Shown here in pieces: positions 1 to 64,000 of a stretch of 64,000 nt of DNA. This DNA comes from Candidatus Stammera capleta (GTDB taxonomy: Bacteria; Pseudomonadota; Gammaproteobacteria; Enterobacterales; Enterobacteriaceae), in the NCBI GenBank assembly GCA_015134075.1, contig CP062308.1, positions 13,439-77,438 of the forward strand, read 5' to 3'. Under the pieces are notes generated by a model. The model was not told the origin of the DNA. It made no database searches and saw only the letters and a list, made by a program, of their open reading frames with translations. The first letter of the stretch is position 1. The number at the start of each line of letters is the position of its first letter. Position numbers and translations under genes: made by a program.

Positions 1-675
1 GATTTAATATATAAAACTGGAAATATAAAAAATTTAAATTATAATATTTATAAAAAAATAATAAATATATTAAAAATTAAAAAAAATTTTTTAATATTAG
101 GAGGAGATCACTATATTACTTTACCAATAATACGAGCATGTAAAAAAAAATATAAAAAAATATCTTTAATACATTTTGATGCACACACAGATACATATTA
201 TGAAAAAAATATATTTGATCATGGATCAATTTTTTATCAAATAAAAAAAGAAAAATTAATATCTAAATCAAATATAATACAAATAGGAATAAGAACATAT
301 ATAAAAAAAAATCATCCATTTAAAATAATAACTTCTGAAGAAGTAAATAATTCATCACATAAAAATATTTTAAAAAAAATAAAAAAAATTATTAAAAAAA
401 ATCCAACATATATAAGTTTTGATATAGATTGTTTAGATCCATCATATGCTCCAGGAACAGGAACTCCAGTAATAAATGGAATTAATATAGATAAAATATT
501 AAAAATAATAAGAAATTTAAAAAATATAAATATAATAGGAATTGATATAGTTGAAGTATCACCAATATATGATCCATCTAATATAACATCATTAACAGCA
601 GCAACAATAGCAAATGAATTTTTACATATACAAACAAAATATATTTTAAAAAAAAAAAAATGAAAAAAAAAATAG
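1..675 (+). CDS. speB: agmatinase (ureohydrolase family), 5' end outside window
   Basis: Frame 1 is open from base 1. Translation contains [37 protein letters not shown] and DIVEVSP, the metal-binding blocks of arginase/agmatinase, and is collinear with my memory of E. coli SpeB. In-frame TGA 661-663 is read as Trp; TAG stop at 673-675. Absent from the ORF track because it has no in-window start. Confidence 0.85.
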
Positions 676-1892
676 ATAAAATATTTAAATTAATAAATTT
701 AGAAAAAAAAAGACAAAAAAATAATATTAATTTAATAGCTTCAGAAAATTATGTAAGTAAAAACGTAATGAAAGCACAAGGATCAATATTAACCAATAAA
801 TATGCAGAAGGATATTGTAAAAAAAGATATTATGAAGGATGTCAATATATAGATAAAATAGAAAAAATAGCAATAAATAGAGCAAAAAAATTATTCAAAG
901 CAAATTATGTAAATGTACAACCACATTCTGGATCACAAGCTAATTTTGCAGTATATAATGCTATATTAAAACCAGGAGAAACAATAATAGGAATGAAATT
1001 AGATCACGGAGGACATTTAACACATGGATCTAAAATAAATTTTTCAGGAAAAATATATAATTCAATATTATATGGATTAAATAAAAATGAAACAATAGAT
1101 TTTAATGAAATTGAATATCTAGTTAAAAAAAATAAACCAAAATTAATAATAGGAGGTTTTTCTTCATATTCAAAAATATGTAATTGAAAAATATTTAAAG
1201 AAATAGCAAAAAAATATAACTGTTTATTTATGGTAGATATGTCACATATAGCAGGATTAGTTGCAGCAAATTTATATCCAAATCCATTAAATTATGCTGA
1301 TATAGTTACTACAACAACACATAAAACTTTAGGAGGACCAAGAGGAGGAATTATTCTAGCTAAAGGAGATAATAAAAAACTATATAAAAAAATAAATTCA
1401 TCTGTATTTCCCGGAATACAAGGTGGCCCTTTAATGCATATTATAGCAGCAAAAGCTATATCTTTTAAAGAAGCATTAACTAAAAAATTTATAAAATATC
1501 AAAAAAACACAATAAAAAATGCAAAAATCATGTCAAAAGAAATAATAAAAAAAAAATTTAAGATAATTTCAAATGGAACAGAAACACATTTATTTGTAAT
1601 AAATTTAGAAAATAAAAATATAACAGGTATAAAAGCAGAAAAAAATTTATCTCTTGCAAATATAATAGTTAATAAAAATTGCATACCTAATGATAAAAAA
1701 AATCCACTAATAACTTCAGGTATAAGAATAGGAACATCTTGTATAAGCAAAAGAAAAATTAATAAAAAAATATCCCTATATATATCAAAATTAATATGTA
1801 AAATATTAAATAATATAAATAATTATAATATAATAAAAAATATTAAAAAAAAAGTAATAAAAATATGTAAAAAATATCCAATAGTTAACTAA
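660..1892 (+). CDS. glyA: serine hydroxymethyltransferase
   Basis: Track ORFs 660..1187 and 1230..1892 are in the same frame, joined through TGA 1185-1187 (..[32 protein letters not shown]..). Full-length SHMT, 410 aa. Confidence 0.95.
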
Positions 1893-3018
1893 AATAATTA
1901 AAAAATTTTTTAATATTATCAAAAAAATTTTTACATTTAGGATTATTTCTATTATTAGACGATGATATACTAACACCAAAATCATATAATAATTTTTTTT
2001 GATACTTATTTAAATTAACAGGAGTTTCAATAAATACTTTACATAATAAATCACCATAAATATTACTGTTATATGATTTTATACCTTTATTTTTTATACG
2101 AAATATTTTACCAGTTTGTGTTTCTGGAGGAATTCTTATTTTTATACTATTTTCTAAAGTAGGTATTTCTATTACACCACCTAAAGCAGCCATTGAAAAA
2201 TTTATAGGAACTTCACAATAAAGATCATTTTTATCTCTACTAAATATATGATGTTTTTTAATTTTAATTTTTATATATAAATCACCAGGTATAGAATCTA
2301 TACCACCATAATTACCTTTACCTACAATTCTTATTTGATCATTATTTTTAACTCCACATGGAATTTTAACAAAAAAATTCTTTGAAACTTTTTCAGTTCC
2401 AGATCCTCTACATATATAACAAATATTTTTAATTATATAACATTCACCATTACAACTAGGACAAGTTTGTTGTATTGTAAAAAATCCCTGACTTGTTTTT
2501 ATATTACCATTACCATTACAAACATTACATAATTTACGATTAGTTCCAGGTCTACAACCATTACCTTTGCAAATACTACATTTTTGCATTACAAAAACTT
2601 TAATTTTTTTAGAAATACCTTTTAAAACCTCTTCTAAAGTTAAATCTACATTACAATAAATATCACTTCCAACATTCTTTTTAGATTTAGATTTTCTAGA
2701 TCCAAATATATCACCAAAAACATCACCAAAAATATCACCAAAATCCGCTGAAGAACTAAAACCAGAAGTAAAATCATTATATCCATTATTTTGATTAAAA
2801 TCAGTATGACCATACTGATCATACATAGATCTTTTTTTTTTATCACTTAAAACTTCATAAGCTTCTTTAATTTTTTTAAATTTTTCTTCACAAGATTTAT
2901 CACCCTTATTTCTATCAGGGTGATATCTCATAGCAAGACGTTTATATGCTTTTTTTATATCTATATTATTAGCAGACTTAGAAATACCTAATATTTCATA
3001 ATAATCTTTTTTATTCAT
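1885..3018 (-). CDS. dnaJ: chaperone DnaJ
   Basis: J domain with HPD, a G/F-rich linker and four CxxCxGxG zinc-finger repeats; directly downstream of dnaK. Confidence 0.95.
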
Positions 3019-3045
3019 TTATAAACCTTATATAAAATATAAATA

Positions 3046-4950
3046 TTATTTATTTTTATCTTTAATTTCTTCACATTCAGCATCTACAACTTCACTTTCT
3101 TTATTACTTTTCTTAAAATTATTATTTTTATTTATATTATTATTACTATATTTAGCCATATTACTAGATAATTGTATTAATTCTTGAATATTTTTATCTA
3201 TAGATAATTTATTTTCCTCTTTACAAGATTTTTCTAAATTATTTAAAGATAATTCTATTTTATTTTTTTCTTCAACAGGAATTTTATCTCCTAATTCATT
3301 TAACTGTTTTCTAGTAGTATGTATTAAATGATCAGCTTGATTACGAGATTGAATTAATTCTTCAAATTTACGATCAGATTCAGCATTTAATTCAGCATCT
3401 CTTACCATTCTACTTATTTCATCTTCATTTAAACCAGAAGAAGCTTTAATTACTATTTTTTGTTCTTTACCTGTATTTTTATCTTTAGCGGATACATGCA
3501 ATATTCCATCCGCATCTATATCAAAAGTTACTTCTATTTGAGGTATTCCTCTAGGTGCTGGTTGTATACCATCTAAATTAAATTGACCTAAAGATTTATT
3601 ATTTATAGATTTTTTTCTTTCACCTTGTAATACATGAACAGTAACAGCTGATTGATTATCTTCTGCAGTAGAAAAAACTTGACTATGTTTTGTAGGAATA
3701 GTAGTATTTTTTTTTATCAAAGTAGTCATTACACCACCCATTGTTTCTATACCAAGTGATAAAGGAGTAACATCTAATAATAAAACATCCTTTACAGATC
3801 CTGATAAAACACCACCTTGTATAGCAGCACCTATAGCAACAGCTTCATCTGGATTAACATCTTTTCTAGGTTTTTTTTTAAAAAATTCTGCAACTTTCTT
3901 TTGAACCATAGGCATTCTAGTTTGACCACCTACAAGTATAACATCATTTATTTTATCTATATTAATATCAGCATCTTTTAATGCTATTTTAACAGGTTCT
4001 ATTGATTTTAAAATCAAATTTTCAACTAAAGATTCTAATTTAGCTCTAGTTAATTTAATATTTAAATGTTTAGGTCCAGTTGAATCCGCTGTAATATATG
4101 GTAAATTTATTTCAGTTTGTTTAGAAGATGATAATTCAATTTTAGCTTTTTCAGCAGAATCTTTTAATCTCTGCATAGAAAGAGGATCATTGGATAAATC
4201 AATATTATAGTCTTTTTTAAATTCAGAAACTAAAAAATTAATAATTTTACTATCAAAATCTTCTCCACCTAAATGAGTATCTCCATTAGTAGATAAAACT
4301 TCAAAAGTTTTTTCTCCATCTATATTATCTATTTCAATAATAGAAATATCAAAAGTACCACCACCTAAATCATAAACAGCTATTATATTATTATTTCTAG
4401 ATTTATCTAAACCATAAGCTAATGCAGCGGCTGTTGGTTCATTAATTATTCTTTTAACATCTAATCCAGCAATACGTCCAGCATCTTTAGTAGCTTGTCT
4501 CTGTGCATCATTAAAATAAGCTGGAACAGTAATAACAGCTTCAGATATCTTTTCACCAATATAATCTTCTGCTGTTTTTTTCATTTTTTTTAAAATCTCA
4601 GCAGAAATTTGCGGAGGAGAAATTTTTTTATTATTAACTTCTACCCATGCATCACCATTATTAGCAGAAACTATATTATAAGGCATTATATTAACATCAC
4701 GTTGAACTTCATTATCACTAAATTTACGTCCTATTAATCTTTTAATAGCAAAAAATGTATTTTTAGGATTTGTTATAGCTTGTCTTTTTGCTGACTTTCC
4801 AACTAAAACCTCATTATTTTTAGTATAAGCTATTATAGAAGGAGTAGTACGATCACCCTCAGAATTTTCTATTACTTTAGATTTTCCAACATCCATAATA
4901 GCTACACAAGAATTAGTAGTCCCTAAATCTATACCAATTATTCTACTCAT
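3046..4950 (-). CDS. dnaK: chaperone DnaK (Hsp70)
   Basis: 634-aa ORF with a canonical Hsp70 N terminus ([21 protein letters not shown]). A GGAG Shine-Dalgarno lies on the minus strand at 4958-4961. Confidence 0.97.
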
Positions 4951-5127
4951 AATAAATCTCCATATTAATTTTAAATTAATACTATATATAAATCATATAT
5001 GTGTACATACATAAAAATATCAACTAAAATATATAAATATTTTTAAAACAAATTAAATATATAATTTAATATTTTATAAAAAAAAATTATAATAATAATA
5101 AACTAAATTTTTATTTTAAATAATTTA

Positions 5128-7908
5128 ATGAATATGAATAAAAAAAATATAAATCATAAATATGATATAAATTTACCAAAAATTAACTTTCCAATGAAAG
5201 CAAATTTAAATATAAAAGAACCACAAATAATAAAAAAATGAGAAGAAAAAAATATATACAAAAAAATAAAAAATAACAAAAAAAAAAAAAATAAATTTAT
5301 AATCCATGATGGACCCCCATATGCTAATGGAGAAATACATATAGGTCATGCTTTTAATAAAATACTAAAAGATATAATACTAAAATATAAAAATTTAATG
5401 AATTATAATATACAATATATACCAGGATGAGATTGTCATGGATTACCAATAGAATTAGAAATACAAAAAAAAACAAATTTTAAAAATAAAATAAATGAAT
5501 TTAAAAAAAAATGTTTTAAATATGCAAATATACAAATAAATAAACAAAAAAAAGATTTTATAAGATTAGGAATATTAGCGGATTGAAAAAATTATTATAA
5601 AACAATGAATACTACAACTATTATTAATACAATAGAAGTATTCAAAAAAATACTAAAACTTAATCTAATAAAATATAAAAATAAACCAATAAATTGATGT
5701 ATAAATTGTAAATCATCTTTATCTGATGCAGAAATAGAATATTTTAAAAAAAAATCAAAATCAATATATGTATGTTTTACAATAAAAAATATAAAAAAAT
5801 ATAATATATTTAAAGAAATAAAAAATAAAAAAATAAATTTAATAATATGAACAACCACACCATGAACAATACCTGGAAATTGTGCTATATCAATACATCC
5901 AGACTACTTATATTCAATAATAAAATTCAATAAAAAAATATATATAATTATAAAAAATAATATAAAAAATATATTTAATAAAAAAAAAATAAAAATAATT
6001 AAAGAAATAAATGGAAAAAAATTAAATAATATTTTAGTAAACCATCCTATATCAAATAAAAAAATACCAATAATTTTAAATAAAAAAATAAAAATTAATA
6101 CTGGAACAGGAATAGTACATATAGCATCAGAACATGGAGAAGAAGATTATTTAATATCTAAAAAAAATAAATTAAAAGGAATTAATGTAATAAATGAAAA
6201 AGGAAATTATATAAAATATGATTTTATAAAAAAAATATATAACTGTAATATATATGAATCAGAAAAAATAATAATAGAAGAATTAAAAAAAAAAAATAAA
6301 ATAATTCTAGAAAAAAAAATAATACATAAATATCCTCATTGTTGAAGACATAAAACACCCATAATAATAAGATCAACTCCTCAATTATTTATAAAAATAG
6401 ATAAAAAATTAAAAAAAAAAATACTTAAATCAATAAAAAATGTAAAATGAAATCCATCATGAGGATATAAAAAAATAAAAGAAATGATAATAAAAAGACC
6501 AGATTGATGTATATCTAGACAAAGAAAATGAGGTACTCCAATAATATTATTTATAAATAAAAAAAATAAAAAAATACACCCAAACAGTATAAATATAATA
6601 AATAAAATAATTAAAAAAATAAAAAAAAATGGAACAAATTATTGGTTTAATACATCAACTAAAAAAATATTAAAAAAAAAATATAATAAATATCATAAAA
6701 TAACTGATATTTTAGATATATGATTTGATTCTGGTGCTACATGTTTTTCAATAATAAATCCAAAATTTAAAAAAAAAAATATAAGTGATTTATATTTAGA
6801 AGGATCAGATCAATATAGAGGATGATTTATGTCATCATTAATTATAAATGTAGCAATTAACAATTGTGCTCCATTTAAACAAATAATATCACATGGATTT
6901 ATAGTTGATAAAAATGGAAAAAAAATGTCTAAATCGTTAAAAAATACAATAAATCCAAAAAATATTATAAATAAATTTGGAGCTGATATATTAAGATTAT
7001 GAGTAGCATCTACAAAATTTAATAAAGAAATACATATTTCTAATGAAATAATATTAAGAACTGTAGAATTATATAGAAAAATAAGAAATACAATAAAATT
7101 TTTAGTATCAAATTTAGATGAATTTAATCCAAAAAAAAAAATAATAAAAAAAAAACAAATGCTATTAATAGACAAATGAATAATACATAAAACAAAAAAA
7201 ACTCAAAATAAAATAATAAACTTATTTAATAAATTTAAATTTAATAAAATAATAAAAAAAATAAATATTTTTTGTACAAAATATTTAAGCTCTTTATATA
7301 TAGATATAATAAAAGATAGAAAATACACAATAAAAAAAAATACTATACCTTATTATAGTGTACAAATAACAATATGAATGATTTTAGAATCAATAACTAA
7401 ATGAATAACACCAATAATATCATTTACAGCTGAAGAAATTTGAAATTATCTACCTAGAAAAAAAGATAAAAATCTATATAATGAAACATGATTTAATAAA
7501 TTATTTTTTTTACATAAAAATAATAAAATAAATGAAAAAATATGAGAAAAATTAATTTTAATTAAAAATAAACTAAATAAAATAATAGAAAAAAAAAAAA
7601 TAAATAAAAAAATAAATTCTTCATTAGAAACAGAAATTATTTTATATACAAAAAAAAGTTTTTTTGAAAAAATTAAAAAAATAAAAAAAGAATTAAAATA
7701 TTTTTTTTTAACTTCAAAAACAAAATTAAAAAAATTTAAAAAAAAATATGAAAAAAATTTTTTTAAAATAATATGTAAAAAAATTAAAGGAATAAAATGT
7801 AATAGATGTTGACATTATGTAAAAAAAAATAAATTTAAAAATAAAAATATATGTAATAGATGTATTAAAAATACAATCGGATCAGGAGAAAAAAGAAAAT
7901 TTATATAA
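5128..7908 (+). CDS. ileS: isoleucyl-tRNA synthetase
   Basis: No ORF in the track. Hand translation of frame 1 is open for 926 codons, with 21 in-frame TGA and no TAA/TAG. HIGH motif ([12 protein letters not shown], about 5310-5350), KMSKS (6922-6936), and PGW-DCHGLP, W-TTTPW-T, DIW-FDSG, GSDQYRGW-F and a C-terminal CNRCW-HY zinc knuckle, all with W encoded by TGA. An alternative start is ATG 5134. Confidence 0.95.
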
Positions 7909-7924
7909 ATTAATTAATTAAAAT

Positions 7925-8734
7925 TTATAATTTAAGCATAAATAAACTATATAATAATTTAACAAAAATATAAAATACAGATTGACGTTGTAAATTCCAA
8001 AAAATATTAAATGACATTAATAAAATAATAATATATAAATAAACAAATTTTTTTTTATCTAAAAAAATATAATAAGAATCAAAATTATTAAACATATATC
8101 AATTATATAACATAAATATATTCATAAACATTAAAAATATTAAAATATATAAATAAATATTAAAAATATAACTATTAGGTATATTAATTGCAACTCCAGA
8201 AAATACCCCTGGTATTATACATAATATTGCCCAAACAGATATACTAATAAAATTAGGAATAACAATATCATTAAAAGGTATTAATAACATTCCAGATACA
8301 AATAATAGAAAAGATTTTAAAGGACCTAAAAATTTACCTAATAACATAAATAAAAATGTATTTTTTTTAAAATATGAAAATATATATTTAATAAACGCAT
8401 TCTTATTAATAACTTTTTTTTCAAAAATAATAAAACTATCTCTAAAAAAAATACCTAAAATATAAGAAATTAAATCTCCTAAAAAACATCCTAAAATTAC
8501 TAAAAAATATGTAATATAAAAATTAATAACTTTTTTTCCTATCATAAAACCTAAAAATAACATAATAAAACTACTTGGTATACATAAACCAATAAAAACT
8601 AATGATTCAATAAAAGAAATTAAAAATATAAATATATATGTATATAATATATATTTATGTATTAAATATTGATAACAAAAACTTAAAAAAAAATTGTTTT
8701 TACTAAAAAAATAATTAAAAATTTTCATTAACAT
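7925..8734 (-). CDS. DedA-family inner membrane protein (C-terminal tail through a TGA codon)
   Basis: Track ORF 8099..8734 (211 aa) is polytopic and carries a DedA-like GDxxxYxxG ... GKFLGPLKSFLLFVSG segment. It ends in TGA (8099-8101). Reading TGA as Trp extends it 58 codons to TAA 7925-7927. Confidence 0.6.
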
Positions 8735-8758
8735 ATAAATAAAACTTTATAAAAAATA

Positions 8759-8777
8759 TTCCTAATAATATTAGGAA
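8759..8777. other. 19-nt palindrome TTCCTAATA-A-TATTAGGAA in the dedA-like/rsmA divergent intergenic region
   Basis: Perfect 9-nt inverted arms around a single central base. It holds the only G/C cluster in about 250 bp of A/T. Function unknown. Confidence 0.4.
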
Positions 8778-8981
8778 ATTAAATTTAACAACGAAATAAA
8801 AATAAAAGAAATATAAAAAAAAATTTTAAAAAAAAATATAAAAAAACAAAAATAAAAACACCAATACTATAAAATAAAAATTTAAAAATTTTTTTCATAA
8901 AATTATAATATAAATTAAATATATAATAATAAATTTATTATAAATAAAATATAAACTTTAAAAACTTAATATAATAATAAC

Positions 8982-9737
8982 ATGATTATTGCATATAAAG
9001 ATATAGGTCAAAACTTTATAAAAAATAAAAAAATAATAAAAAAAATAATAAAATATATAAAACCATCTAAAAAAGAATATTATTTAGAAATTGGATGCGG
9101 AAATGGAGAATTAACTAAAGAAATAATAAAATATACAAAAAATTTTATTGGAATAGAAATAGACGAAATATTAATAAAAAAAATAAAAAAAAAAATAAAA
9201 AATATAAATATATTAAATATAAACATATTAAATTTTAATTTTTCTATATATAAAAAAAAAATAAATATAATAGGTAATATACCTTATTATATATCACATA
9301 AAATATTATTTAAATTAACAAAAAATCAATCAAAAATAAAAAATATATATATAATGATTCAAAAAGAATTATATGAAAATATAAAAATAAATAAAAAAAA
9401 TACAAAATACTCAAAAACAAATATATTAATAAATGCTTTTTTTAATATAAAATTATTTAAAATAATAAAAAAAAAAAATTTTAAACCAATACCAAAAGTT
9501 GATTCTGTTTTTTTAAGATTAAAATCAAATAATAATAAGTATAAAATAAAAAATATAAAATTATTTATAAATATACTAAATAATATTTTTTTTAAAAAAA
9601 ATAAAAAAATAATAAATAGTATAAAAAAATTTATAAAAAAAAAAGAATATAAAAATAAAAAAATACTAAATAAAAGAATAAATAATATATCTATAAAAAA
9701 TATATATAAAATAATTAATTTTATAATAAATAATTAA
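8982..9737 (+). CDS. rsmA: 16S rRNA (adenine1518/1519-N6)-dimethyltransferase
   Basis: GQNFIKN, EIGCGNGELT (SAM-binding) and GNIPYYIS motifs of KsgA/RsmA; 251 aa. Confidence 0.85.
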   Translation: MIIAYKDIGQNFIKNKKIIKKIIKYIKPSKKEYYLEIGCGNGELTKEIIKYTKNFIGIEIDEILIKKIKKKIKNINILNINILNFNFSIYKKKINIIGNIPYYISHKILFKLTKNQSKIKNIYIMIQKELYENIKINKKNTKYSKTNILINAFFNIKLFKIIKKKNFKPIPKVDSVFLRLKSNNNKYKIKNIKLFINILNNIFFKKNKKIINSIKKFIKKKEYKNKKILNKRINNISIKNIYKIINFIINN

Positions 9738-9994
9738 TTAATATTATTAATTAATTTAATCAAATTAGATTTATATCTAGAAACTTTATTTAAAGATAAT
9801 ATATTTCTAGAAGCTAATCTATCAGATATAGATTGAAAAATACAAAAATTAACTAAAGATTTTTTTTTATCTTTATTTTTTATTGATAAAATTACTTTTT
9901 TAAAATAAGTTTTAAAAATAGATTTCTTAATAGAATTAATTTTTTTTCAAAATCTATTTATTAATACTCTTTTTTTTGAAGATTTTATAGACAT
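9734..9994 (-). CDS. rpsT: 30S ribosomal protein S20
   Basis: Not in the track (below 60 aa between TGAs). Hand translation gives MSIKSSKKRVLINRFW KKINSIKKSIFKTYFKKV...SRYKSNLIKLINNIN, which resembles E. coli S20 (MANIKSAKKRA..). One in-frame TGA at 9947-9949. Confidence 0.8.
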
Positions 9995-10011
9995 AATATA
10001 TACCAATTAAA

Positions 10012-11670
10012 TTAAGAATTTTTATTAAAATATTTTATTAAATTATATGTAGAACTATCAAAATAAATTTTTTTTTGAATATAATTTTTATATTTTAAAC
10101 ATGGATAAATATAATTAAATAATTTTTTTCCTAATTCAACTCCCCATTGATCAAAACTAGATATATTTAAAATAACACCATGAGTAAAAACTTTATGTTC
10201 ATACATAGATATTATTGCTCCAATTGAATATGGATCAATTTTTTTTATCAAAAAAACATTATTAGGTCTATTACCTTTAAATTTAACAAATCTAAAAAGA
10301 TTAGAATTATTCAAAAAAACATTATCTTTTCTATTTTTAAAAACTCTATCTCCAAAAGCTAAAGACTGAGATTGAGATAATAAATTTGAAGCTAATTTTA
10401 AATTAGAATTATTTATATTATTAGAATTATTATTAACTTCTATAAAAAAATCACAAGGTATTATATAAGTTCCTTGATGTAACAATTGATAAAAAGAATG
10501 CTGAGAAACAGTACCTGTTCCACCAAAAATAATTGGAGATGTATAATAGTTATTAATATAATTACCATTATAATCAACATATTTACCATTAGATTCCATA
10601 AATAACTGTTGTAAATATAATGGCAAAAGAGATAAATTTTCATTATATACTAATATAGCTTCATTAGAAAAATTAAAAAAATTACTATATCAAATTGTTA
10701 AAATAGATAATATAATAGGAATATTAAATTTATAATCAGAATTAAAAAAATGAATATCCATATCATTAGCTCCATGTAACATTTTTCTAAAATTATCAAA
10801 CCCTATAGATATAGCTATAGGTAAACCAAAAGCTGAACAAAAAGAATAACGACCACCAACTCAATCATCTACAATAAATATATTATTAGAATTAACACCA
10901 AACTTTATAGCTTCACTAAAATTACTAGAAACTAAAATAAAATGATTATTTAAACAATCTTTTTTGTTACCAAAAAAATCTAAAACTCATTTTTTAGCAA
11001 TATTAGCGTTAAACAATGTCTCTAAAGTAGTAAAACTTTTTGAACATATTATAAAAATAGTATCTTCTGGAGAAATTTTATTTAAAATATTAATTATATC
11101 TGTAGAATCTATATTAGAAACAAAAAAATTTTTCTGAAATTTATTATATTTATATAAAGAAAGAGATTTAATAATCATTCTAGATCCAAGATCTGATCCT
11201 CCTATACCAATATTAACTATATTTTTTATTTTTTTTTTAGAAAATCCTAACCAAGAATAATTATTAATTTTATCTACAAAAAATTTAATTTTATTTAAAT
11301 TAGTATCAATATCTTTTTTAATATCAAAAAAAGAAGAATTGTTTTTAACAAAAATATTATTAATATCTCTTAATAAAAAATTTAATACAAACTTATTTTC
11401 TGTAAAATTAATTTTTTCTCCATTTAACATAGAAACAACATAATCTTTAAAATTAATTTCATTTAATAAATCAATAAATAAATCAATTGTTTTATCTATA
11501 ATTCTATTTTTAGAATAATCAAATAAAATATTATTATTAAAATTTAAAGAAAAATCTTTAAATCTATTTTTATTTTTTTTAAATAAATCTATCATTTTAA
11601 TATTTTTAATTAATTTAAAATGATCTAATAAATTAGCTCAACTTTTTGTTCTAATAGGATTTTTAAACAT
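10012..11670 (-). CDS. pgi: glucose-6-phosphate isomerase
   Basis: Track fragments 10012..10626 and 10987..11595 are in the same frame. The 120 codons between them and the 25 upstream codons (MFKNPIRTKSW ANLLDHF..) are open apart from TGA. 552 aa, against 549 aa in E. coli. Confidence 0.93.
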
Positions 11671-11796
11671 ATATATTCCTAATACATTTATAAATAATTT
11701 TATTATATGTAAAATAATCTTTACATAAAAAAATATTATGTTTATTATTATTAATAAATTTATTTATACTAAATAATTAATAATTTATAATTTAAC

Positions 11797-13581
11797 ATGT
11801 ATTTATTAAATAATAAAAAAAAAATATTCTTAAATAGACTTAAAATAATATTTTTAATATTATCAGGATTTTTAATATATTTAATATACAATTTATATAT
11901 ATTACAAATAGTTAAAAACAAATATTATAATATATTAGCAAAAAATAATTATATTAAAATAATACCAATTATACCACATAGAGGATGAATTTTCGATAAA
12001 AATGAAATACCAATAACATATAATAAAAAAACATATTTTCTAAAAATAAAAACAAAAAATATAAAAAATATAGAAGAAGAAATAAAAAAAATAAAAAAAA
12101 TATTTCCACTTAAAAAAAAAATAATAGAAGATATAATAATTAAATTTAAAAATAAAAAAAAATATAAAAATATAAAAATAAATAAAGAATTAAAACCTAA
12201 AGAAATAAATATTTTCTATAAATATAAAAATTTATTTCCAAATATAAAAATAATAAGTGAATATAATAGATATTATCCTTACAAAAATATTTTATCTCAT
12301 GTAATAGGTTATGTAATAAAAAAAAATAAAAAATATTACATAGGAAAAACAGGAATAGAAAAATATTATCAAAATATATTATATGGAGAAAATGGATATA
12401 AAGAAAAAATAGTAGATGGAAAAAATAAAACTATAAAAAAAAAATATATAAAATTAGAAAAAGCTGGTAAAAATATTACTTTATCAATAGATTTAAATTT
12501 ACAAAAATTTATATATAATTTATTAAAAAAAAACCAATGTTCAGTAATAATAAGTAATTGTAGAAATGGAGATATTTTATCTTTAATTTCAATACCTAGT
12601 TATAATCCAAATATTTTTATAAAAAAAAAAAATAACAAAAAATATAAAAAAATATTAGAAAATGAAAATAAACCATTAATAAACAAAACAATACAATCAA
12701 TATATCCTCCCGCTTCTACAATAAAACCATATATAGCTATATTAGCATTAAAAGAAAAAATAATAAAAAAAAACTCAAAAATATTTGATCCAGGATGATG
12801 AAAAATACCAAAGTCAAAAAAAATATTCTATGATTGAAATAAATGAGGACATGGTTCAGTAAATATAATTAAATCAATAGAAGAATCATCAGATATATTT
12901 TATTATCAATTATCTTATCGTCTAGGAATAGAAAAAATAACAAAATGAATAAAATTATTTGGATATGGTGAAAAAACTAATATTGATTTACCTAATGAAA
13001 AAAAAAATTTTTTACCTAATAAAAAATGAAAAAATAAAATTTTTAAAGAAAAATGATATATAGGAGATACAATATCTATTGGAATAGGACAAGGATATTT
13101 AAATGCTACTCCTATTCAAATGAATAAAGCTTTAGTTACATTAATAAATAATGGAAAATCAATAAAACCACATATAATTAAAAAAATTGATAATAAAAAA
13201 ATAAATTATTTATTTGAAAAAAAAATAAATAATATAGATAAAAAATATTGAGATATAATTAAAAAAGCAATGTATGGAGTAATTCATAAAAAAAATGGAA
13301 CTGCATATATATATTTTATAGGAACAAAATATAAAATAGCAGCTAAATCAGGAACAGCACAAATAATATCAATAAAAAATAATGAAAGATATAATAATAA
13401 AAATAAAATTAAAAAAAAATTTGAAGATCATATTTTAATGAATGCTTTTCTACCATATGAAAATCCAAAATTTGCAATAACAATAATATTAGATCATGGA
13501 GGTAATAAAAAACAAAAAATAGGATCAATTATGAAAAATATAACTGATTATATAATGAAAAATATTAATAAATATGATTAA
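11797..13581 (+). CDS. mrdA: peptidoglycan D,D-transpeptidase PBP2
   Basis: Frame 1 is open over 594 codons with TGA as Trp. SxxK (PPASTIKP, about 12706-12729), KSGTA, and the FDPGWW block with tandem TGA TGA at 12796-12801. Followed by rodA. Confidence 0.92.
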
Positions 13582-14641
13582 GAATATATTTAATAAATTA
13601 GATATAACTATATCAATATGTATATTAACACTATTATTATATAGCACTATATTATTATATAGTGCTAATAATCAAAATATAAATATTGTATTTAAAAGAA
13701 TATTTCATATAATAATAAGTATAATTACAATGATTATTATAAAACAATTTGATATAGAATTTTATAAAAAAAATATAAAAATATTTTATTTTATAAATAT
13801 AATTTTATTAGTAATAATTTTAATAAATGGATATATAATAAAAGGCGCTCAAAGATGAATAAATATAGGATTAATACAATTTCAACCATCAGAAATAACT
13901 AAAATTATTATACCAATAATTATAAATAAAATAACTAGCAAAATTCATTCATTTACAATATATAATATAATATATCCTATTATAATAACATTAATTCCTA
14001 GCTATTTAATATATTTACAACCAGATTTAGGAACATCAATATTAATAATATTTAATTTAATAATAATATTCTTTTTAAACGGGATAAATAAAAAAATAAT
14101 TTTATTTTCTTTTATAATATTTATATTATTTATACCAATATCATGAAAATTTTTATTACATAATTATCAAAAAAAAAGAATATTAACATTAATAAAATAT
14201 AATAAAAAAAACATAAAAAATAGTGGATATCATACACATCAATCAAAAATTGCAATAGGTTCTGGAGGAAAATATGGAAAAGGATTATTTAAAGGAACTC
14301 AATCACAATTAAAATTTATACCAGAAAATAAAACAGATTTTATATTTACTATAATAGCAGAAGAACATGGATTTATAGGAATATGTTTTTTAATAATGAT
14401 ATATATTGTATTAATCTCAAAACTAATCTTAATATCAATAAAAAATAATAATATATATGATTCAATATTAATATCAAATTTTACAATAAATTTAGCAATA
14501 CAAATATTAATAAATATTGGTATGATTATTGAATTACTACCTGTTGTAGGAATACCATTACCATTAATTAGTTATGGTGGAACTTCATTAATAAGTAATA
14601 TGTCAATATTTGGAATAATTATGTCAACAAAAAAAAAATAA
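13574..14641 (+). CDS. mrdB: SEDS peptidoglycan polymerase RodA
   Basis: Track fragments 13574..13858 and 14396..14641 are in the same frame and the middle is open apart from TGA. Polytopic, with the conserved ..HQSKIAIGSGGKYGKG..FIPENKTDFIFTIIAEEHGF.. block. Confidence 0.9.
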
Positions 14642-14642
14642 T

Positions 14643-15839
14643 ATGAAAAAAATAAAAAAAATTATTTTAATAATATCATTATTATTATTAAATATATCAA
14701 TACCAAAAAGCAAAAATATCAAAATAAATCCTGAATCATATATACTTGTAGATTTTTATTCTAATAAAATACTAGCAAAAAAAAATCCTGATTTAAAATT
14801 AGCTCCAGCTAGTTTAACTAAAATAATGACAAATTATATTGTTTCTGATTATATAAAAAAAAAAAAAATAAATAAAAAAGATTTAGTTTTAATAAAAGAA
14901 AATTCATGATATAAAAATCCTATATTTAAAAATTCATCATTAATGTTTATAAAAAAAAATCAAAAAATTAAAATAGATAAATTAAATAAAGGAATGATAA
15001 TAACATCAGGTAATGATGCATGTATAGCAATCACAAATTATATATCAGATAATGAAGAAAAATTTACAAATTTAATGAATAAATATTCTAAAATAATAAA
15101 TTTAAAAAATACAAATTTTAAAAATTCACATGGATTAGATAATATAAATCAATATACAACATCAAGAGATATAGCTAAACTAAGTATTAAATTAATTAAA
15201 AATTTTCCTAAAGAATATAAAATATATAAAAAAAAATTTTTTATATTTAATAATATAAAACAAAAAAATAGAAATGATTTATTATGATATAAAAAAATAA
15301 ATATAGATGGAATAAAAACAGGACATACAGATTTAGCAAAATATAATATAGTTGTATCAGCAAAAAAAAAAAAAACAAGATTAATAGCTGTAATCTTAGG
15401 AGCTGAATCAATAAAAGATAGAAATATATATTCAAAAAAATTATTAAAATGAGGTTTTAATAACTTTAAAACTAAAAAAATATTTTCAAAAAATAAAACA
15501 ATAAGATATGAAAATATATGATTAGGAAAAGAAAATAAAATTAAAGTAGGATTAAATAAAAATATATATATAACATTTAAAAAAAATAAAAAACAAAAAA
15601 ATAAAATACATTATAAAATATTTAATATATTAAAAGCTCCTATATATAAAAATCAAATAATAGGGAAAATATGTTTATTAAAAAAAAATAAATTTCAAAA
15701 ATGTTTTTTATTAAAATCATTAACAGATATTGAAACAAAAAATAAAATACAATATATATTCGAATATATATACATGAATATATATATATTTATATCAAAT
15801 ATATTTAACAAATTAATTAAAATAATAAAAAATGAATAA
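14643..15839 (+). CDS. dacA: D-alanyl-D-alanine carboxypeptidase (PBP5/6 class)
   Basis: Signal-peptide-like N terminus, SxxK (ASLTK), SGN (TSGND) and KTG (IKTGHT). Fragments 14643..14909 and 14943..15287 plus the tail are joined in frame through TGA. The position after mrdA-rodA matches E. coli dacA. Confidence 0.88.
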
Positions 15840-25362: not shown

Positions 25363-25785
25363 TTATTTTATTTTTTTTAAAACTCCAGAAGATACCCTAA
25401 TATTCTTATCTAAAATAATTAATTTTTTTTTAAAAAATTTTCCACCCAAAATTATTTTAATAAACTTAATTTTCTTATTAATTATATTATAATTTTTTAA
25501 TAATTTTAAATTAATAATATCATTATTTTTAAAAATATTTAATTTACATAAACATAATTCTTTAAATTTATTATTTTTTTTTTTTTTAAAACCAAATTTT
25601 GGTATACGACGATAAAAAGGAGTTTGCCCTCCTTCAAAAAATCTATTAATTTTATAACCAGATCTAGATTTTTGTCCTTTATGTCCTTTTCCACTAGTTT
25701 TACCAAAACCAGATCCTATACCTCTACCTAATCTTTTAGATTTTTTATTAGCAAAAACATTAAATAATCTATTTAACAATAACAT
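25363..25785 (-). CDS. rplO: 50S ribosomal protein L15
   Basis: ..[27 protein letters not shown].. The start is taken at the second ATG (MLLLNRL); the track ORF starts 12 nt upstream at 25797. Confidence 0.9.
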
Positions 25786-25821
25786 AATATTTACCACAAA
25801 TAAATTAATTAATTATATAAA

Positions 25822-43156: not shown

Positions 43157-43393
43157 AAAATATATAAATAAATATAAAATATTAAAATTTAAATATACAC
43201 TATATATATTTAATTATAGAAATACAAATAAATAAAATATTTTTTTAAAAATTAATCATATAATTTAATTATAATTTAAAATAAAAAATAAAATTAAAAT
43301 ATTTAATAAAATTAATTTAAACATTATTTGTTTAAAAATTAAAATAATTTAAAATTAATATTATTTTAAATATTTATTTAAAAATAAAATCTA

Positions 43394-43852
43394 TTAAAAA
43401 TTACTTAAATATTTTTTATATAAATAATTATAATAATTTACAATTATAATACGTTTATCTAATTTTAAATAACTAAATTTTAAATAAAAAGTAGGTTTAG
43501 GTAAATAGTTAATAAATTTATCAGGTCATTCAACTAAACAAATATTATCGTTATTAAAATATGAATAAATATCTATATCAAATAATTCATTAAAAGATAA
43601 TAATCTATAAAAATCAAAATGAAAAACATTAAAAAACTTAAGATTATATATATTTACTAAAGAATAAGTTGGACTTTTTATAATACCTTTATAACCTAAT
43701 TTTTTAACTAAAAAATTACAAAAAAAAGATTTACCACAACCTAAAGGACCACTTAAATATAAAAAATTACCTTTATTTAAAAAAAAAGAAAACTTTTCAG
43801 ATATAAAACGCATTTTTTTTATATTATTTATATATATAATTTTACTAAACAT
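43394..43852 (-). CDS. tsaE: tRNA t6A37 biosynthesis ATPase TsaE
   Basis: LSGPLGCGKSFF.., SPTYSLVNIY, HFDFYRL, and ..CLVE followed by TGA then PDK (the conserved EWP). 152 aa. Confidence 0.85.
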
Positions 43853-43854: not shown

Positions 43855-43927
43855 AGCGGAAAACGAGACTCGAACTCGCGACCTTAACCTTGGCAAGGTT
43901 ACACTCTACCAGCTGAGCTATTTCCGC
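43855..43927 (-). tRNA. tRNA-Gly (anticodon GCC; plus-strand ggc at 43892-43894)
   Basis: The reverse complement reads GCGGAAATAGCTCAGCTGGTAGAGTGTAACCTTGCCAAGGTTAAGGTCGCGAGTTCGAGTCTCGTTTTCCGC+U, a standard cloverleaf. No encoded CCA. Confidence 0.9.
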
Positions 43928-44474
43928 AATTAAAATTAAAAATTTTTTTTTTATAAAAAATTAATTCTTTAATAGATTCTTTAACATCAAAAAAAGCCAT
44001 ATGAGTATTTTTTTTTTTAAAATTATATAAAATAGAAGGATTTCATCTAATAACTAATTCTCTTATAGTACTAACATCTATATACCTATAATGAAAATAA
44101 CTTTCTAATTTAGGCATATAATTAAATAAAAACCTTCTATCTTGAGCTATTGTACTACCACATATTGGAGAACAACCTTTAGGTACTAATTTTTTTAAAA
44201 ATTCTATAGTAATAAATTCTGCTTTTTTTTCATTTAAAAAACTATTTTTTACTCTATTTATAAGACCAGTTTTATTATGAATATTTAAATTTCATTTATT
44301 CATATTAGAAAGATATATATTTTTTTGATATATAGCAATATTTGGACCTTCTTTTAAAATATTTAAATTAAAATCTGTAACTAAAGTAAAAATTTCTAAA
44401 ATTCTATCTTTTTCAGGATTTAAACCTGTCATTTCTAAATCAATTCAAATTAAATTATTTTTATTATATAGCAT
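43899..44474 (-). CDS. orn: oligoribonuclease (reading frame runs into tRNA-Gly)
   Basis: Hand translation gives [34 protein letters not shown]...[45 protein letters not shown].., collinear with E. coli Orn. As given, there is no stop before TAA 43899-43901, which lies inside the tRNA-Gly gene. Confidence 0.88.
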
Positions 44475-44497
44475 TTTTTTTAAAAAAAATAAATATA

Positions 44498-44571
44498 CGG
44501 TACGAACGGGGCTCGAACCCGTGACCTCCAGCGTGACAGGCTGATATTCTAACCAACTGAACTACCGTACC
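44498..44571 (-). tRNA. tRNA-Asp (anticodon GTC; plus-strand gac at 44535-44537)
   Basis: The reverse complement reads GGTACGGTAGTTCAGTTGGTTAGAATATCAGCCTGTCACGCTGGAGGTCACGGGTTCGAGCCCCGTTCGTACC+G, close to E. coli tRNA-Asp. It lies distal to the 5S rRNA. Confidence 0.9.
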
Positions 44572-44575
44572 AAAA

Positions 44576-44688
44576 ATTTCTGGCAGTGTCTTACTCTCGC
44601 ATAAATACACTACCATTAGCGCTATAACATTTCACTTCTGAGTTCGGAATGGTTTCAGGTGGTTCTATTATGCTATTACCGCCAGAAA
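44576..44688 (-). rRNA. rrf: 5S rRNA
   Basis: The reverse complement reads TTTCTGGCGG...CCGAACTCAGAAGTGAAA...ATGCGAGAGTAAGACACTGCCAGAAAT, which aligns end to end with E. coli 5S, with a shortened internal helix. Confidence 0.9.
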
Positions 44689-44711
44689 ATATAAAACATT
44701 TTTAGGTTGCG

Positions 44712-47633
<2,922 letters not shown>

Positions 47634-47662
47634 CGCAACCTAAAAATGTCTTGAATACAAAA

Positions 47663-47678
47663 TTTTAAAAGAACAAAA
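47663..47678 (-). promoter_or_regulatory. boxA-like antitermination element in the spacer upstream of 23S
   Basis: The minus strand reads TTTTGTTCTTTTAAAA, identical to the 16-mer at 49437-49452. The core TGTTCTTTTAAAA matches E. coli boxA TGCTCTTTAACAA at 10 of 13 positions. It lies between tRNA-Glu and the 23S stem, as in E. coli. Confidence 0.55.
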
Positions 47679-47679
47679 A

Positions 47680-47751
47680 CGTCCTCTAGGGGACTCGAAC
47701 CCCTGTTATCGCCGTGAAAGAGCGATGTCCTATCCTTTAGACGAAGAAGAC
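47680..47751 (-). tRNA. tRNA-Glu (anticodon TTC; plus-strand gaa at 47716-47718) in the 16S-23S spacer
   Basis: The reverse complement reads GTCTTCTTCGTCTAAAGGATAGGACATCGCTCTTTCACGGCGATAACAGGGGTTCGAGTCCCCTAGAGGAC+G, very close to E. coli tRNA-Glu. Confidence 0.9.
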
Positions 47752-47794
47752 ACAATAAAATAAATATATGAAACGCCTGCAAAATATTATTTAA

Positions 47795-49346
<1,552 letters not shown>

Positions 49347-50054: not shown

Positions 50055-50294
50055 TTAAACCTTTAAATTAGAATGCAAATCAGTATAAGGAAGTAAAGCT
50101 AAATATCTAGCTCTTTTAATAGCTATTGATAATTTTCTTTGATATTTAGAAGAAATTCCTGTTATTCTAGAAGGTATTATTTTATTACATTCACTAATAA
50201 AATCTTTTAATAAATTAATATCTTTATAATCTATATATTTCATTTTTTTAAAAACAAAACGAGAATATTTTTTATTTCTATAAAAATTAAACAT
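50055..50294 (-). CDS. rpsR: 30S ribosomal protein S18
   Basis: ..[52 protein letters not shown].. Confidence 0.95.
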
Positions 50295-50310
50295 AATTAA
50301 ACCTTTTAAA

Positions 50311-50631
50311 TTATTTTTTTTTTAATATCATTATTGATGGATTTTTTTCTATATTTTTTTTTCTTAAAACCATAAATCTTAATATATTATTATTAACTTT
50401 CAAATCCTTAATAATAGAATCAATAAAATTTTTATTTATAGATATATTCATTAAAATATAATAAGCTTTGCAATAATTCTTAATATTATAAGATAAATAT
50501 CTTAAACCCCAATTTTCTAATCTATCAATTTTACCATTACTATTAATAATATTTGAATAATATTTAATAATATCATCTACTAAAGATCCTTTATCAGGAT
50601 ATATCATAAAAACAATTTCATAATGAAACAT
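50311..50631 (-). CDS. rpsF: 30S ribosomal protein S6
   Basis: [13 protein letters not shown].. and ..[12 protein letters not shown]..; upstream of rpsR. Confidence 0.9.
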
Positions 50632-53017: not shown

Positions 53018-53524
53018 TTATTTAGTAATAATCTTATAAAATTTATTACTAAATAATAACTTAATTATAAAAAACCATAAAAGAGTATCTAATAAAACAT
53101 TAAAAATAAAATATAAATTAAATTTATAATTTAATAAAAAACAATCAAAAATTAAAGAAAAAAAATTTAAAAAAAAATTAAAAAATAAAACAATAAAAAA
53201 AATTTCTATATTTAAAAAATAAAAAAAATTAAATCTAATATACGAAATTATATAAGAAGATAATAAATATATTAAAATATTCTTACCTAATATGCATCCA
53301 AATAATATATCAACTAAAAAACCAAATAAAAAATTAAAAAAAAAATATTTAATATCTTTAATATAAAAAAATATAATGTAAATATAAAAAATATTTAAAA
53401 AAGAAGGATATATATTTATTTTTTTTATAAAAAAATTAATAAAATTAAAAAAAATACACAAAATAAATAAAAAAAACAAAAAACAATAAATATTATATTT
53501 ACTATATATAGAATTTAAAAACAT
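53018..53524 (-). CDS. mreD: rod shape-determining protein MreD (by position and topology)
   Basis: 168-aa polytopic hydrophobic ORF immediately downstream of mreC. The sequence is too divergent for a motif-level call. Confidence 0.55.
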   Translation of the reverse strand: MFLNSIYSKYNIYCFLFFLFILCIFFNFINFFIKKINIYPSFLNIFYIYIIFFYIKDIKYFFFNFLFGFLVDILFGCILGKNILIYLLSSYIISYIRFNFFYFLNIEIFFIVLFFNFFLNFFSLIFDCFLLNYKFNLYFIFNVLLDTLLWFFIIKLLFSNKFYKIITK

Positions 53525-53563
53525 TTTTTTTTTTTATTTTAAATTATATTTTATATAACTAAT

Positions 53564-54352
53564 TTAAATTAAAACTCCAAATTCTAACTTATTATATCTA
53601 ATAAAAGATTTAACATTAGCTCTCATACAACCACAATTCTTATCTAAATAAATATTCTTCACTATTCCTATAGGATAATTAACAAAAACATTAGAATTTA
53701 AAGAATAAATAACAATAATATCTCCTTTTTTAATATCAAAATTAAAAGGAATATCATATATTTTCATATCATTTAAACAACCAAAACCTAATACAATAAC
53801 TTCTTCATTATTTCTAAAAATTTTACCAAAAATACCACTATTTTTATGACATATTAACTCTAATTCAGCTACATTTTTATTAAATCCAATAACTTTCCCT
53901 AATATACCTATTCCATTAAAAAATAAATTACCATAATTAATATAACTATTATTAATAGAACTAACAAATAATTTATCATTATCACCTAATTTAAAAGAAA
54001 TTAACTTAACAATAGTGAAATTTTTTCTTTTCAAAACATATGTATCTAAAATACTACTTAATTTATTTTTTTCTTCTATAAAATTATTTAACATATGTAA
54101 TTTATTTTTTAAAACTATATTCTCTTTATTAAGAGAAATATTTTTATAAATTAAATTATTAATATTATTTAAATACTTTTTTTTATCATTAATATAAATA
54201 CTAAATTTATTAAAAAAATCATAAAAAATAAAATTAACTTTTCTAAAACAAAATTTAATACCATTTAAACAATTAAAATGTAAATCACATAAAATTAATA
54301 AAAAAGATAAAAAAACAAAAAATAAAAAATTATAGTTTTTATTTGAAAACAT
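53564..54352 (-). CDS. mreC: rod shape-determining protein MreC
   Basis: N-terminal TM segment, a coiled-coil stretch (..NKENIVLKNKLHMLNNFIEEKNKL..) and a beta-rich C-terminal domain (..GIGILGKVIG..PIGIV..); between mreB and mreD. Confidence 0.72.
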   Translation of the reverse strand: MFSNKNYNFLFFVFLSFLLILCDLHFNCLNGIKFCFRKVNFIFYDFFNKFSIYINDKKKYLNNINNLIYKNISLNKENIVLKNKLHMLNNFIEEKNKLSSILDTYVLKRKNFTIVKLISFKLGDNDKLFVSSINNSYINYGNLFFNGIGILGKVIGFNKNVAELELICHKNSGIFGKIFRNNEEVIVLGFGCLNDMKIYDIPFNFDIKKGDIIVIYSLNSNVFVNYPIGIVKNIYLDKNCGCMRANVKSFIRYNKLEFGVLI

Positions 54353-54384
54353 AAAATAATTCTTCTAAAAATTAAATAATATTA

Positions 54385-55434
<1,050 letters not shown>

Positions 55435-55698
55435 TTACCTAATTAAACATAATTATAAATAAATAATTATAAATATAAAATTAATAAAAATTAAAAAACA
55501 AACTATCTTTAATAAATATTTAATATTAAAATGAATATACAATTAATATTGTTTTGAAAAATAATAAAACACTTTTAAATTATTTTTTTTACTTTAAAAA
55601 AAATATAATATATATATTTAATTATATCAAAATATTAATTTAATTTATTAGCATTTTGAATAATAATATATATAAATTAATTCAAATGGTATATTAAA

Positions 55699-56028
55699 AT
55701 GTATGCAATAATTAGAATAGGATCTAAACAATATAAAATAAGAGAAAAAAGTAAAATAATTATAGATAAAATAAATAAAAAAATAGGAAAACAAATAAAA
55801 TTTAAATATAAAGAAATTATTTTAATATATAAAAATAACAAAATATATTTTTTAAAAAAAGATTTAATAAATTTTAAAATAACAGCAAAAATTATATCAC
55901 ATATAAAAAATAAAAAAATAAAAATATTAAAATTTAAAAGAAGAAAACATCATAAAAAAAAAATAGGTCATAGACAAAAATATACTAAAATAGAAATAAA
56001 AAAAATAGGAAAAAAAAATGGCACATAA
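55699..56028 (+). CDS. rplU: 50S ribosomal protein L21
   Basis: [18 protein letters not shown]..; overlaps the rpmA start by 11 nt. Confidence 0.9.
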
Positions 56029-59252: not shown

Positions 59253-59591
59253 ATGTATTTATTCTTTTCGATATTATTTGTATTAATATGTATATCATTA
59301 ATAATTTTAGTAATATTAACTCCTAGTAAAAATAATATTATAAATACATATACAGATACAACAAATACAAATAATATAGTAATTACACAAAATTTTTTAA
59401 AAAACACATTAAATTATATAATTACAATTTTTGCAATAACATTTTATACTATAGCTATAGTATTGAATATATTAAATAATACAATAAAATATAAAAACTA
59501 TTATATTGAAAAAAAACAACAAAAAATTAAAATAAATAATAATAATAAAAGCCGGGATGGTGAAACTGGTAAACACGCTACTTTGAGGTAG
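59253..59591 (+). CDS. secG: preprotein translocase subunit SecG (frame runs into tRNA-Leu)
   Basis: N terminus MYLFFSILFVLICISLIILVIL.. resembles E. coli SecG MYEALLVVFLIVAIGLVGLIML.. There is a second hydrophobic segment. It lies directly upstream of tRNA-Leu(GAG), as secG-leuU does in E. coli. The first in-frame stop is TAG 59589-59591, inside the tRNA gene. Confidence 0.68.
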   Translation: MYLFFSILFVLICISLIILVILTPSKNNIINTYTDTTNTNNIVITQNFLKNTLNYIITIFAITFYTIAIVLNILNNTIKYKNYYIEKKQQKIKINNNNKSRDGETGKHATLR

Positions 59592-59625
59592 TAGTAATAT
59601 ACGGGTTCGAATCCCGTTCCCGGTA
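59551..59625 (+). tRNA. tRNA-Leu-like (anticodon GAG at 59585-59587) with a short variable region
   Basis: GCCGGGA TG GTG AAACTGGTAAA CAC G CTACT TTGAGGT AGTAG TAATAT ACGGG TTCGAAT CCCGT TCCCGGT A. It aligns with E. coli leuU except that the roughly 15-nt variable arm is replaced by about 6 nt. Discriminator A73. Confidence 0.8.
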
Positions 59626-60815: not shown

Positions 60816-60819
60816 ATAT

Positions 60820-63736: not shown

Positions 63737-63782
63737 AAATTAATTATCTAATTATTTAATTATTTAATTATTTAATATTAAA

Positions 63783-63854
63783 TGGCCCCTATTGGATTCG
63801 AACCAACGACCAAGCGATTATGAGTCGCCTGCTCTACCTCTGAGCTAAAGGGCC
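63783..63854 (-). tRNA. tRNA with CAT anticodon, body resembling tRNA-Ile2 (lysidine type, ileX-like)
   Basis: The reverse complement reads GGCCCTTTAGCTCAGAGGTAGAGCAGGCGACTCATAATCGCTTGGTCGTTGGTTCGAATCCAATAGGGGCC+A. The anticodon arm GGCGA-CTCATAA-TCGCT and the acceptor resemble my memory of E. coli ileX more than elongator or initiator tRNA-Met. The amino-acid identity is not certain. Confidence 0.8.
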
Positions 63855-63914
63855 AATATTTAAAATATAACTTTATCAATAAAATAAATAATTTTCAAGT
63901 ATAATTTTAAACAA

Positions 63915-64000
63915 TTATTTTTTATATTTTAATACTTTAACCATAGCTGGACGTAATAATCTACTATTTAATATATATCCATCTTGTAATATATCTATAA
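63915..64000 (-). CDS. grpE: nucleotide exchange factor GrpE, 3' end only
   Basis: The minus-strand frame reads ..LQDGYILNSRLLRPAMVKVLKYKK* (TAA 63915-63917). The E. coli GrpE tail is ..[23 protein letters not shown]. The rest lies outside the window. Confidence 0.75.
   Translation of the reverse strand, partial: IDILQDGYILNSRLLRPAMVKVLKYKK

Follow-up and report, generated by a model that had tools for sequence, protein, structure and literature searches.

The 64-kb stretch of bacterial DNA analysed here (the window; 19.7% G+C) almost certainly belongs to the chromosome of Candidatus Stammera capleta, a symbiont that lives extracellularly in the foregut of tortoise beetles (Cassidinae), and is translated with genetic code 4, in which UGA serves as an ordinary tryptophan (Trp) codon and only UAA and UAG terminate. 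This reassignment is already known for exactly this organism, having been published since 2017 and built into the public annotation of this genome. Later work, published between 2021 and 2026, has returned to it: PMC10540940, PMC8629427, PMC13462651 and the preprints 10.1101/2023.12.12.571295 and 10.64898/2026.05.24.727570 attribute UGA-to-Trp in Stammera to Salem et al. 2017, the program Codetta infers UGA as Trp for Stammera (PMC8629427), and 50 Stammera genomes were annotated with code 4 in a comparative study (10.1101/2023.12.12.571295). A preliminary description of the window had proposed that TGA is read as Trp throughout, and had supposed that a genome with gammaproteobacterial gene order would be a less familiar setting for such a change. 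The first claim is supported by the analysis below and the second falls away, since UGA-to-Trp has long been described for Stammera. The code change is nonetheless of practical importance: annotation pipelines using code 11 would shatter 63% of the genes in this DNA, and a careful reader can recognise the change from the raw sequence alone.

Gene calling with TAA and TAG as the only stop codons gave 72 open reading frames (ORFs), and 65 ORFs with clear Escherichia coli K-12 orthologues in the compared regions form the set for the codon counts in the window. Three entries in the code-4 ORF list are spurious: two fall within rRNA genes and the third runs antisense to rplU. Diverged small proteins were missed by tblastn with composition correction; Pfam was then used and identified five more genes of the window, namely rplU, mreD, secG, rbfA and a gene for a DedA/VTT membrane protein. 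With TGA read as sense, 24 ORFs instead of 9 reach 300 amino acids and the longest grows from 648 to 933 amino acids, in agreement with the earlier observation that long genes are broken under the standard code. Reading TAG as sense leaves the ORF structure of the window unchanged.

The 65 orthologue-backed genes contain 123 in-frame TGA and 9 TGG codons, with at least one TGA in 41 of the 65 (63%). Alignment to orthologues, with the residue opposite each in-frame TGA tabulated, had been set beforehand as the test of the Trp assignment, and we translated TGA as X before alignment to E. coli proteins to avoid circularity. Trp is strongly enriched in the result: E. coli has Trp opposite 104 of the 123 TGA codons, against a background of 0.89% among aligned E. 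coli residues (binomial P = 2.5e-196), with glycine once and cysteine never. Two of the five cases scored as gaps are the C-terminal Trp residues of ribosomal proteins S14 and S7, clipped by local alignment, which brings the number of TGA codons at E. coli Trp positions to 106 of 123. Counted the other way, 153 E. coli Trp positions are occupied in the window by TGA at 104 sites and by TGG at 8, the others being mostly Phe, Tyr, Leu or Cys codons. A per-codon table of the window against E. coli gives 88% agreement for TGA as Trp, a level not inferior to that of the canonical assignments, and the standard code holds for all other codons. TGA has taken over about 93% of UGG codons for Trp in window genes, and the remaining TGG is not significantly kept in highly expressed genes (5/39 versus 4/93; p = 0.12). 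The base 3′ of TGA is unbiased and follows the same distribution as after other codons (p = 0.88), indicating that TGA is an ordinary sense codon and not a context-dependent read-through site.

Individual genes illustrate the pattern, and all sites singled out in the preliminary description proved to be correctly placed. The ileS gene (5128–7908, plus strand) carries 21 TGA codons, 20 opposite E. coli Trp and one opposite Tyr, together with a single TGG at 6643–6645; the Trp of the isoleucyl-tRNA synthetase motif PGW-DCHGLP is TGA at 5428–5430. Nine TGA codons occur in mrdA (11797–13581, plus strand), which encodes PBP2, including a tandem TGA TGA at 12796–12801 opposite the DPGWW of E. coli. 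The single Trp of EF-Tu is TGA at 34848–34850 in tufA (34218–35402, minus strand), and rpoA (21453–22469, minus strand) has TGA at 21495–21497 opposite the Trp of E. coli NW-PP. The TGA sites noted for L16, Fmt, TsaE and GpmA likewise lie opposite E. coli Trp in the alignments. The two C-terminal cases are equally clear: the last sense codon of rpsN (27672–27977, minus strand; S14) is TGA at 27675–27677, followed by TAA and corresponding to the C-terminal Trp of E. coli S14, and rpsG (37579–38049, minus strand; S7) ends in ...AFAHYRW, with TGA at 37582–37584 and then TAA. Surviving TGG codons, described earlier as rare but present in rplF, rpsN and pgi, were located at 27053 (rplF), 27852 (rpsN), and 10144 and 11251 (pgi).

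Termination in the window is carried by TAA and TAG. As the preliminary description had claimed from its own checks, there is no in-frame TAA or TAG within the 65 genes, compared with 392–1,857 in each of the other two frames and with the 123 TGA in frame. The stop codons of the 65 genes are TAA in 62 and TAG in 3, with TGA in none, and every gene ends within a few residues of its orthologue's end or with a comparable unaligned tail. TGA is therefore needed nowhere in the window as a terminator. Before the first TGA of each gene, identity to E. coli is 48.2%, and after it 46.4%, so there is no decay beyond the supposed stop. We observed no extension hinting at a missed TGA stop, except for read-through of two former stops described below.

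Several lines of evidence place the window in Stammera. When its EF-G was scanned against one genome per GTDB species, the best match was Candidatus Stammera capleta isolate 1 (CP043985.1, 245 kb) at 77%, with all others at 65% or less, and its 23S rRNA is 92.4% identical to that of isolate 1 and 81.9% identical to that of E. coli. DnaK, encoded by a gene free of TGA (3046–4950, minus strand) and used for lineage placement, matches the public NCBI protein P0002 exactly, and P0002 comes from a contig of 283,359 bp. The DnaK of CP144808.1 (GCA_036689375.1, 282,761 bp) shares 94% identity with that of the window, and about 40 further relatives with 78–85% identity lie on NCBI contigs of 212–326 kb. 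Neighbour-joining of DnaK sequences puts the window well inside a set of about 42 such NCBI genomes, isolate 1 and CP024013.1 (271,175 bp) among them, and this set stands apart from Buchnera, Purcelliella, Dasytiphilus, Erwinia and Pantoea. One member of the set, GCA_036689315.1, is called a Candidatus S. capleta genome in the gTranslate preprint. The code-4 translation of hflX (40943–42205, minus strand), which has three in-frame TGA codons, matches, residue for residue, a public protein (P0121) encoded on the same 283,359-bp contig; P0121 has Trp at all three TGA sites, and the deposited annotation of this genome thus already uses code 4. Both the length of that contig and the 19.7% G+C of the window fall within the ranges tabulated for 49 Stammera genomes (G+C 13.9–20.4%, size 0.22–0.34 Mb, UAA at 88–97% of stops; PMC13462651 Table 2). 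In the same DnaK search, a 919-residue European Nucleotide Archive protein from a 16.4-kb contig (P0001) scored 1,541 bits, higher than the window's identical match at 1,357 bits, with no identity reported, which could mean a fusion or duplication in that DnaK call.

Gene order supports the same placement. Synteny of the window with E. coli is Enterobacterales-like, as the preliminary description had judged from the order of genes, and derived junctions connect the window to Stammera specifically. The isolate 1 locus (L013, CP043985.1) follows the gene order of the window all the way from rplO to tsaE, across the S10 and str operons; it also has in-frame TGA, and has in common with the window junctions without an E. 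coli counterpart (rlmB/fmt-def/tRNA-Leu-tRNA-Cys/rpsL). The order rplI / rrn / aspT-orn-tRNA-Gly-tsaE-miaA-hflX-rlmB / fmt-def / tRNA-Leu-tRNA-Cys / rpsL onward is common to L013 and the loci L100–L102, with the exception that orn is absent from L013. On the other side, the dacA-to-glyA region (660–15839 of the window) is collinear with L093, the neighbourhood of CP144808.1. Amino-acid identity of the window strain is 92% to CP144808.1 and 62–73% to other Stammera lineages; we rely on protein identities because raw blastn identities between these AT-rich loci are inflated by spurious high-scoring segment pairs.

Comparison among Stammera genomes shows how far the reassignment has advanced. At Trp positions set by E. 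coli in two regions (dnaK-ileS-pgi and hflX-fusA-rplB), CP144777.1 (312 kb; loci L096 and L100) has 0 TGA and 61 TGG; 2 of the 15 called genes in its dnaK locus end in TGA, identifying it as a code-11 genome. CP144790.1 (GCA_036689315.1; L095 and L101) is intermediate with 13 TGA and 53 TGG, CP144853.1 has 51 and 8, and the window has 59 and 4. Counts from one region only are 24 TGA and 2 TGG in CP024013.1, 18 and 3 in isolate 1, and 35 and 4 in the sister genome CP144808.1. The TGA share at the same Trp sites accordingly runs from 0% in CP144777 through about 20% in CP144790 to about 94% in the window. This series independently reproduces the published picture, in which a basal Stammera lineage of five genomes keeps code 11 and prfB, the gene for release factor 2 (RF2; gTranslate preprint), and an early-stage code-4 genome also occurs; the window stands at the advanced end of the trajectory.

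Old TGA stops can be followed through the same comparison. Both glyA and rplD end in TGA in the code-11 genome and in TAA in the window. In the code-11 locus L096, speB stops at a TGA overlapping the glyA start by 4 nt; the window retains this fossil stop (660–675, plus strand), in which the speB-frame TGA at 661–663 overlaps the glyA ATG at 660–662 as ATGA, and reading through it adds W-K-K-K up to TAG at 673–675. Likewise, in the code-11 relative orn stops at a TGA 14 nt short of tRNA-Gly (L100 5948–5965); this stop has been lost in the window, where orn (43899–44474, minus strand; three Trp-TGA codons) extends 29 nt into the tRNA-Gly gene (43855–43927) and ends at a TAA inside it. A similar overlap is seen at secG (59253–59591), the ORF of which ends at a TAG 41 nt inside tRNA-Leu (59551–59625).

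The alternative that survives best, at a probability we consider low, is that reassignment in this strain is incomplete or dual in meaning, with RF2 kept and UGA terminating certain genes but read through elsewhere, a state proposed for the leech symbiont Providencia siddallii. Speaking for it are the annotation of prfB in 15 of 49 Stammera assemblies, compared with code 11 in only 5 (PMC13462651 Table 2; gTranslate preprint), the intermediate state of CP144790 and the position of prfB outside the window. In the window, however, each of the 65 genes has a TAA or TAG at its expected end and no need of a TGA stop, 93% of Trp codons are already TGA, no context signature surrounds TGA, and old TGA stops have visibly been read through or replaced. 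The preliminary description had named an intact prfB together with a tRNA-Trp of CCA anticodon only as an observation that would count against the reassignment. That combination is unusable as a discriminator here, as Stammera genomes are always recorded with tRNA-Trp(CCA) and without tRNA-Trp(UCA), and prfB is annotated in more of them than use code 11.

An independent, undescribed reassignment in an Enterobacterales symbiont other than Stammera is very improbable. In its favour, an exact 32-mer from the 16S V3 region is absent from GTDB representative genomes, and the EF-G of the window is only 77% identical to that of the named Stammera genome; according to the literature, most Stammera genomes fail GTDB quality control. 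Stammera lineages are equally divergent from one another, however, at 62–73% mean amino-acid identity, and the window nests inside the clade in the DnaK tree, has derived gene junctions in common with Stammera loci, and matches exactly a public NCBI genome whose proteins fall in a set including the literature-named GCA_036689315.1.

The remaining two alternatives have virtually no chance of being correct. If the genes were pseudogenes in a decaying genome, with TGA as a true truncating stop, the breakage of most long genes under code 11 and the tendency of tiny symbiont genomes to accumulate pseudogenes would fit, but the alignments already refute this reading: breaks are exclusively TGA and never TAA or TAG, 86% of TGA codons coincide with conserved Trp, neither the frame nor the similarity to E. 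coli changes beyond them, essential genes are hit (tufA, fusA, rpoA, secY and ribosomal protein genes), and independent Stammera genomes have the same pattern. That TGA encodes another residue, whether glycine (code 25), cysteine or selenocysteine, has precedents in the UGA-to-Gly change of Gracilibacteria and Absconditabacteria and in the use of UGA as a selenocysteine codon. The alignment data exclude UGA-to-Gly and selenocysteine, given the preponderance of Trp over glycine and cysteine opposite TGA, 123 sites in 41 genes are far too many for selenocysteine, and no tRNA-Sec or selB is present in Stammera according to published surveys (PMC13462651 Table 2).

Some points nevertheless weigh against reading UGA as a fully settled Trp codon in this strain. 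Seventeen of the 123 TGA codons lie off E. coli Trp positions, in variable regions, and the simplest explanation for them is a gain of Trp. Neither the tRNA-Trp nor the prfB of this genome was seen in the window or in the Stammera loci examined, with the limits that prfB was not expected in the window and no Stammera-like RF2 query was used. RF2 is missing from most published Stammera genomes, but because prfB persists in nearly a third of the assemblies, its loss is not to be assumed for this strain. The support assembled here is at the level of sequence.

Searches for tRNA-Trp by ARAGORN, relaxed ARAGORN, Rfam and nhmmer with E. coli trpT found none in the 64-kb window, and none occurs in the 9 Stammera loci examined. 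The single rRNA operon of the window (44497–49346, minus strand; 16S, tRNA-Glu, 23S, 5S, tRNA-Asp) has the layout of E. coli rrnC as far as tRNA-Asp. In E. coli the next gene is trpT, which is missing here (44475–44572). In all Stammera loci examined for this site (L013, L100, L101 and L102), orn or tRNA-Gly stands after aspT instead. As trpT has gone from the post-aspT site even in the code-11 genome, its relocation predates the code change and is unrelated to it.

Stammera is the one code-4 lineage reported with neither a UCA anticodon nor a shortened tRNA-Trp anticodon stem. In PMC10540940 (Table 2), Stammera is listed without prfB, with a trnW that reads UGG (CCA anticodon) and with 15.4% G+C. 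The one live issue that the window touches is by what means an ordinary-looking tRNA-Trp(CCA) reads UGA in Stammera, and whether some strains do so with RF2 still present; the window itself has no evidence on either part. UGA-to-Trp reassignment in Stammera could have arisen in steps, in which extreme AT mutational pressure would first make UGA stops rare and RF2 would next be lost or disabled. Near-cognate reading of UGA by tRNA-Trp(CCA), through a C34-A wobble mismatch, would thereby be freed of competition, TGG-to-TGA mutations would then drift towards fixation, and old TGA stops would either give way to TAA or be passed over until another TAA or TAG is reached. Isopentenylation of A37 enhances UGA reading by E. 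coli tRNA-Trp, and miaA, which encodes the tRNA A37 isopentenyltransferase, is retained in the window (42206–43156, minus strand); by analogy it may help tRNA-Trp to read UGA, although this is only a lead. It is also conceivable, if unlikely, that the strain reads UGA through an undescribed feature, such as a change in the D arm of the Hirsh type (G24A or A9C), a ribosomal change or unusual chemistry at C34 or A37 through tRNA modification, perhaps beside a retained prfB; nothing in the window shows such a feature. If this were true, the graded TGA series across Stammera genomes and the fossil stops would allow the mechanism to be dated.

Beyond the genetic code, the window records reductions and lineage differences in gene content. 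There is no room for rpmD (L30) between rpsE and rplO (36-bp gap, 25785–25822), for priB between rpsF and rpsR (50294–50311) or for hfq between miaA and hflX (42205–42206). The interval from tsaE to miaA (43156–43394) contains neither amiB nor mutL, a site at which the deep-branching loci L100–L102 keep an amidase and mutL. An apaH-like metallophosphatase gene located between rpsT and rsmA in the deep-branching loci L095–L097 is absent from the window (8734–8982), and the gene for the DedA/VTT membrane protein (7925–8734) is present in the window, L093 and L097. Between pgi and mnmA the window keeps mrdA, mrdB (rodA) and dacA (11797–15839), in addition to mreBCD at 53018–55428. In CP024013.1 (L098 2574–5542; 271 kb), mnmA directly abuts pgi, indicating that elongasome genes are missing at that site and that cell-wall gene content differs between Stammera lineages. 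No gene for pectinases, whose production is the symbiotic hallmark of Stammera, occurs in the window. GC skew flips at about 55500–56000, from about -0.4 to +0.13, exactly where gene orientation switches from minus (mreB) to plus (rplU-rpmA). The annotated origin, by synteny with CP144808.1, would lie roughly 10 kb past the right end of the window, and the flip probably reflects gene strand rather than the origin.

Among known systems, the window agrees with Candidatus Stammera capleta itself in every essential respect: DnaK and HflX are identical in a public genome, gene order is collinear, about 63% of genes contain UGA, compared with 159 of 255 coding sequences (62%) reported for Stammera (PMC10540940), about 95% of stops are TAA, and G+C content and size lie in the published ranges. 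The differences are confined to nothing essential, the window keeping mrdA, mrdB and dacA where CP024013.1 lacks them at the syntenic site. Candidatus Zinderia insecticola, a betaproteobacterial spittlebug symbiont, likewise combines UGA as Trp with loss of prfB, a CCA-only tRNA-Trp and extremely low G+C content; it belongs to another class, and the anticodon stem of its tRNA-Trp is 4 bp long, which favours UGA reading, in contrast to the ordinary 5-bp stem reported for Stammera tRNA-Trp(CCA) (PMC13092985). Candidatus Hodgkinia cicadicola, Candidatus Nasuia deltocephalinicola and Mycoplasmatales also use UGA as Trp genome-wide and have lost RF2, but they decode UGA with a cognate tRNA-Trp(UCA), which Stammera is reported always to lack (PMC10540940; gTranslate preprint). 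The leech symbiont Candidatus Providencia siddallii PSAC resembles the window in being a member of Enterobacterales in which tRNA-Trp(CCA) is present and UGA occupies Trp positions. Reassignment in PSAC is at an early stage, with UGA in about 20% of genes, prfB present and some genes apparently needing UGA stops (PMC10540940), whereas the window represents a late stage in which 63% of genes contain UGA and none ends with it.

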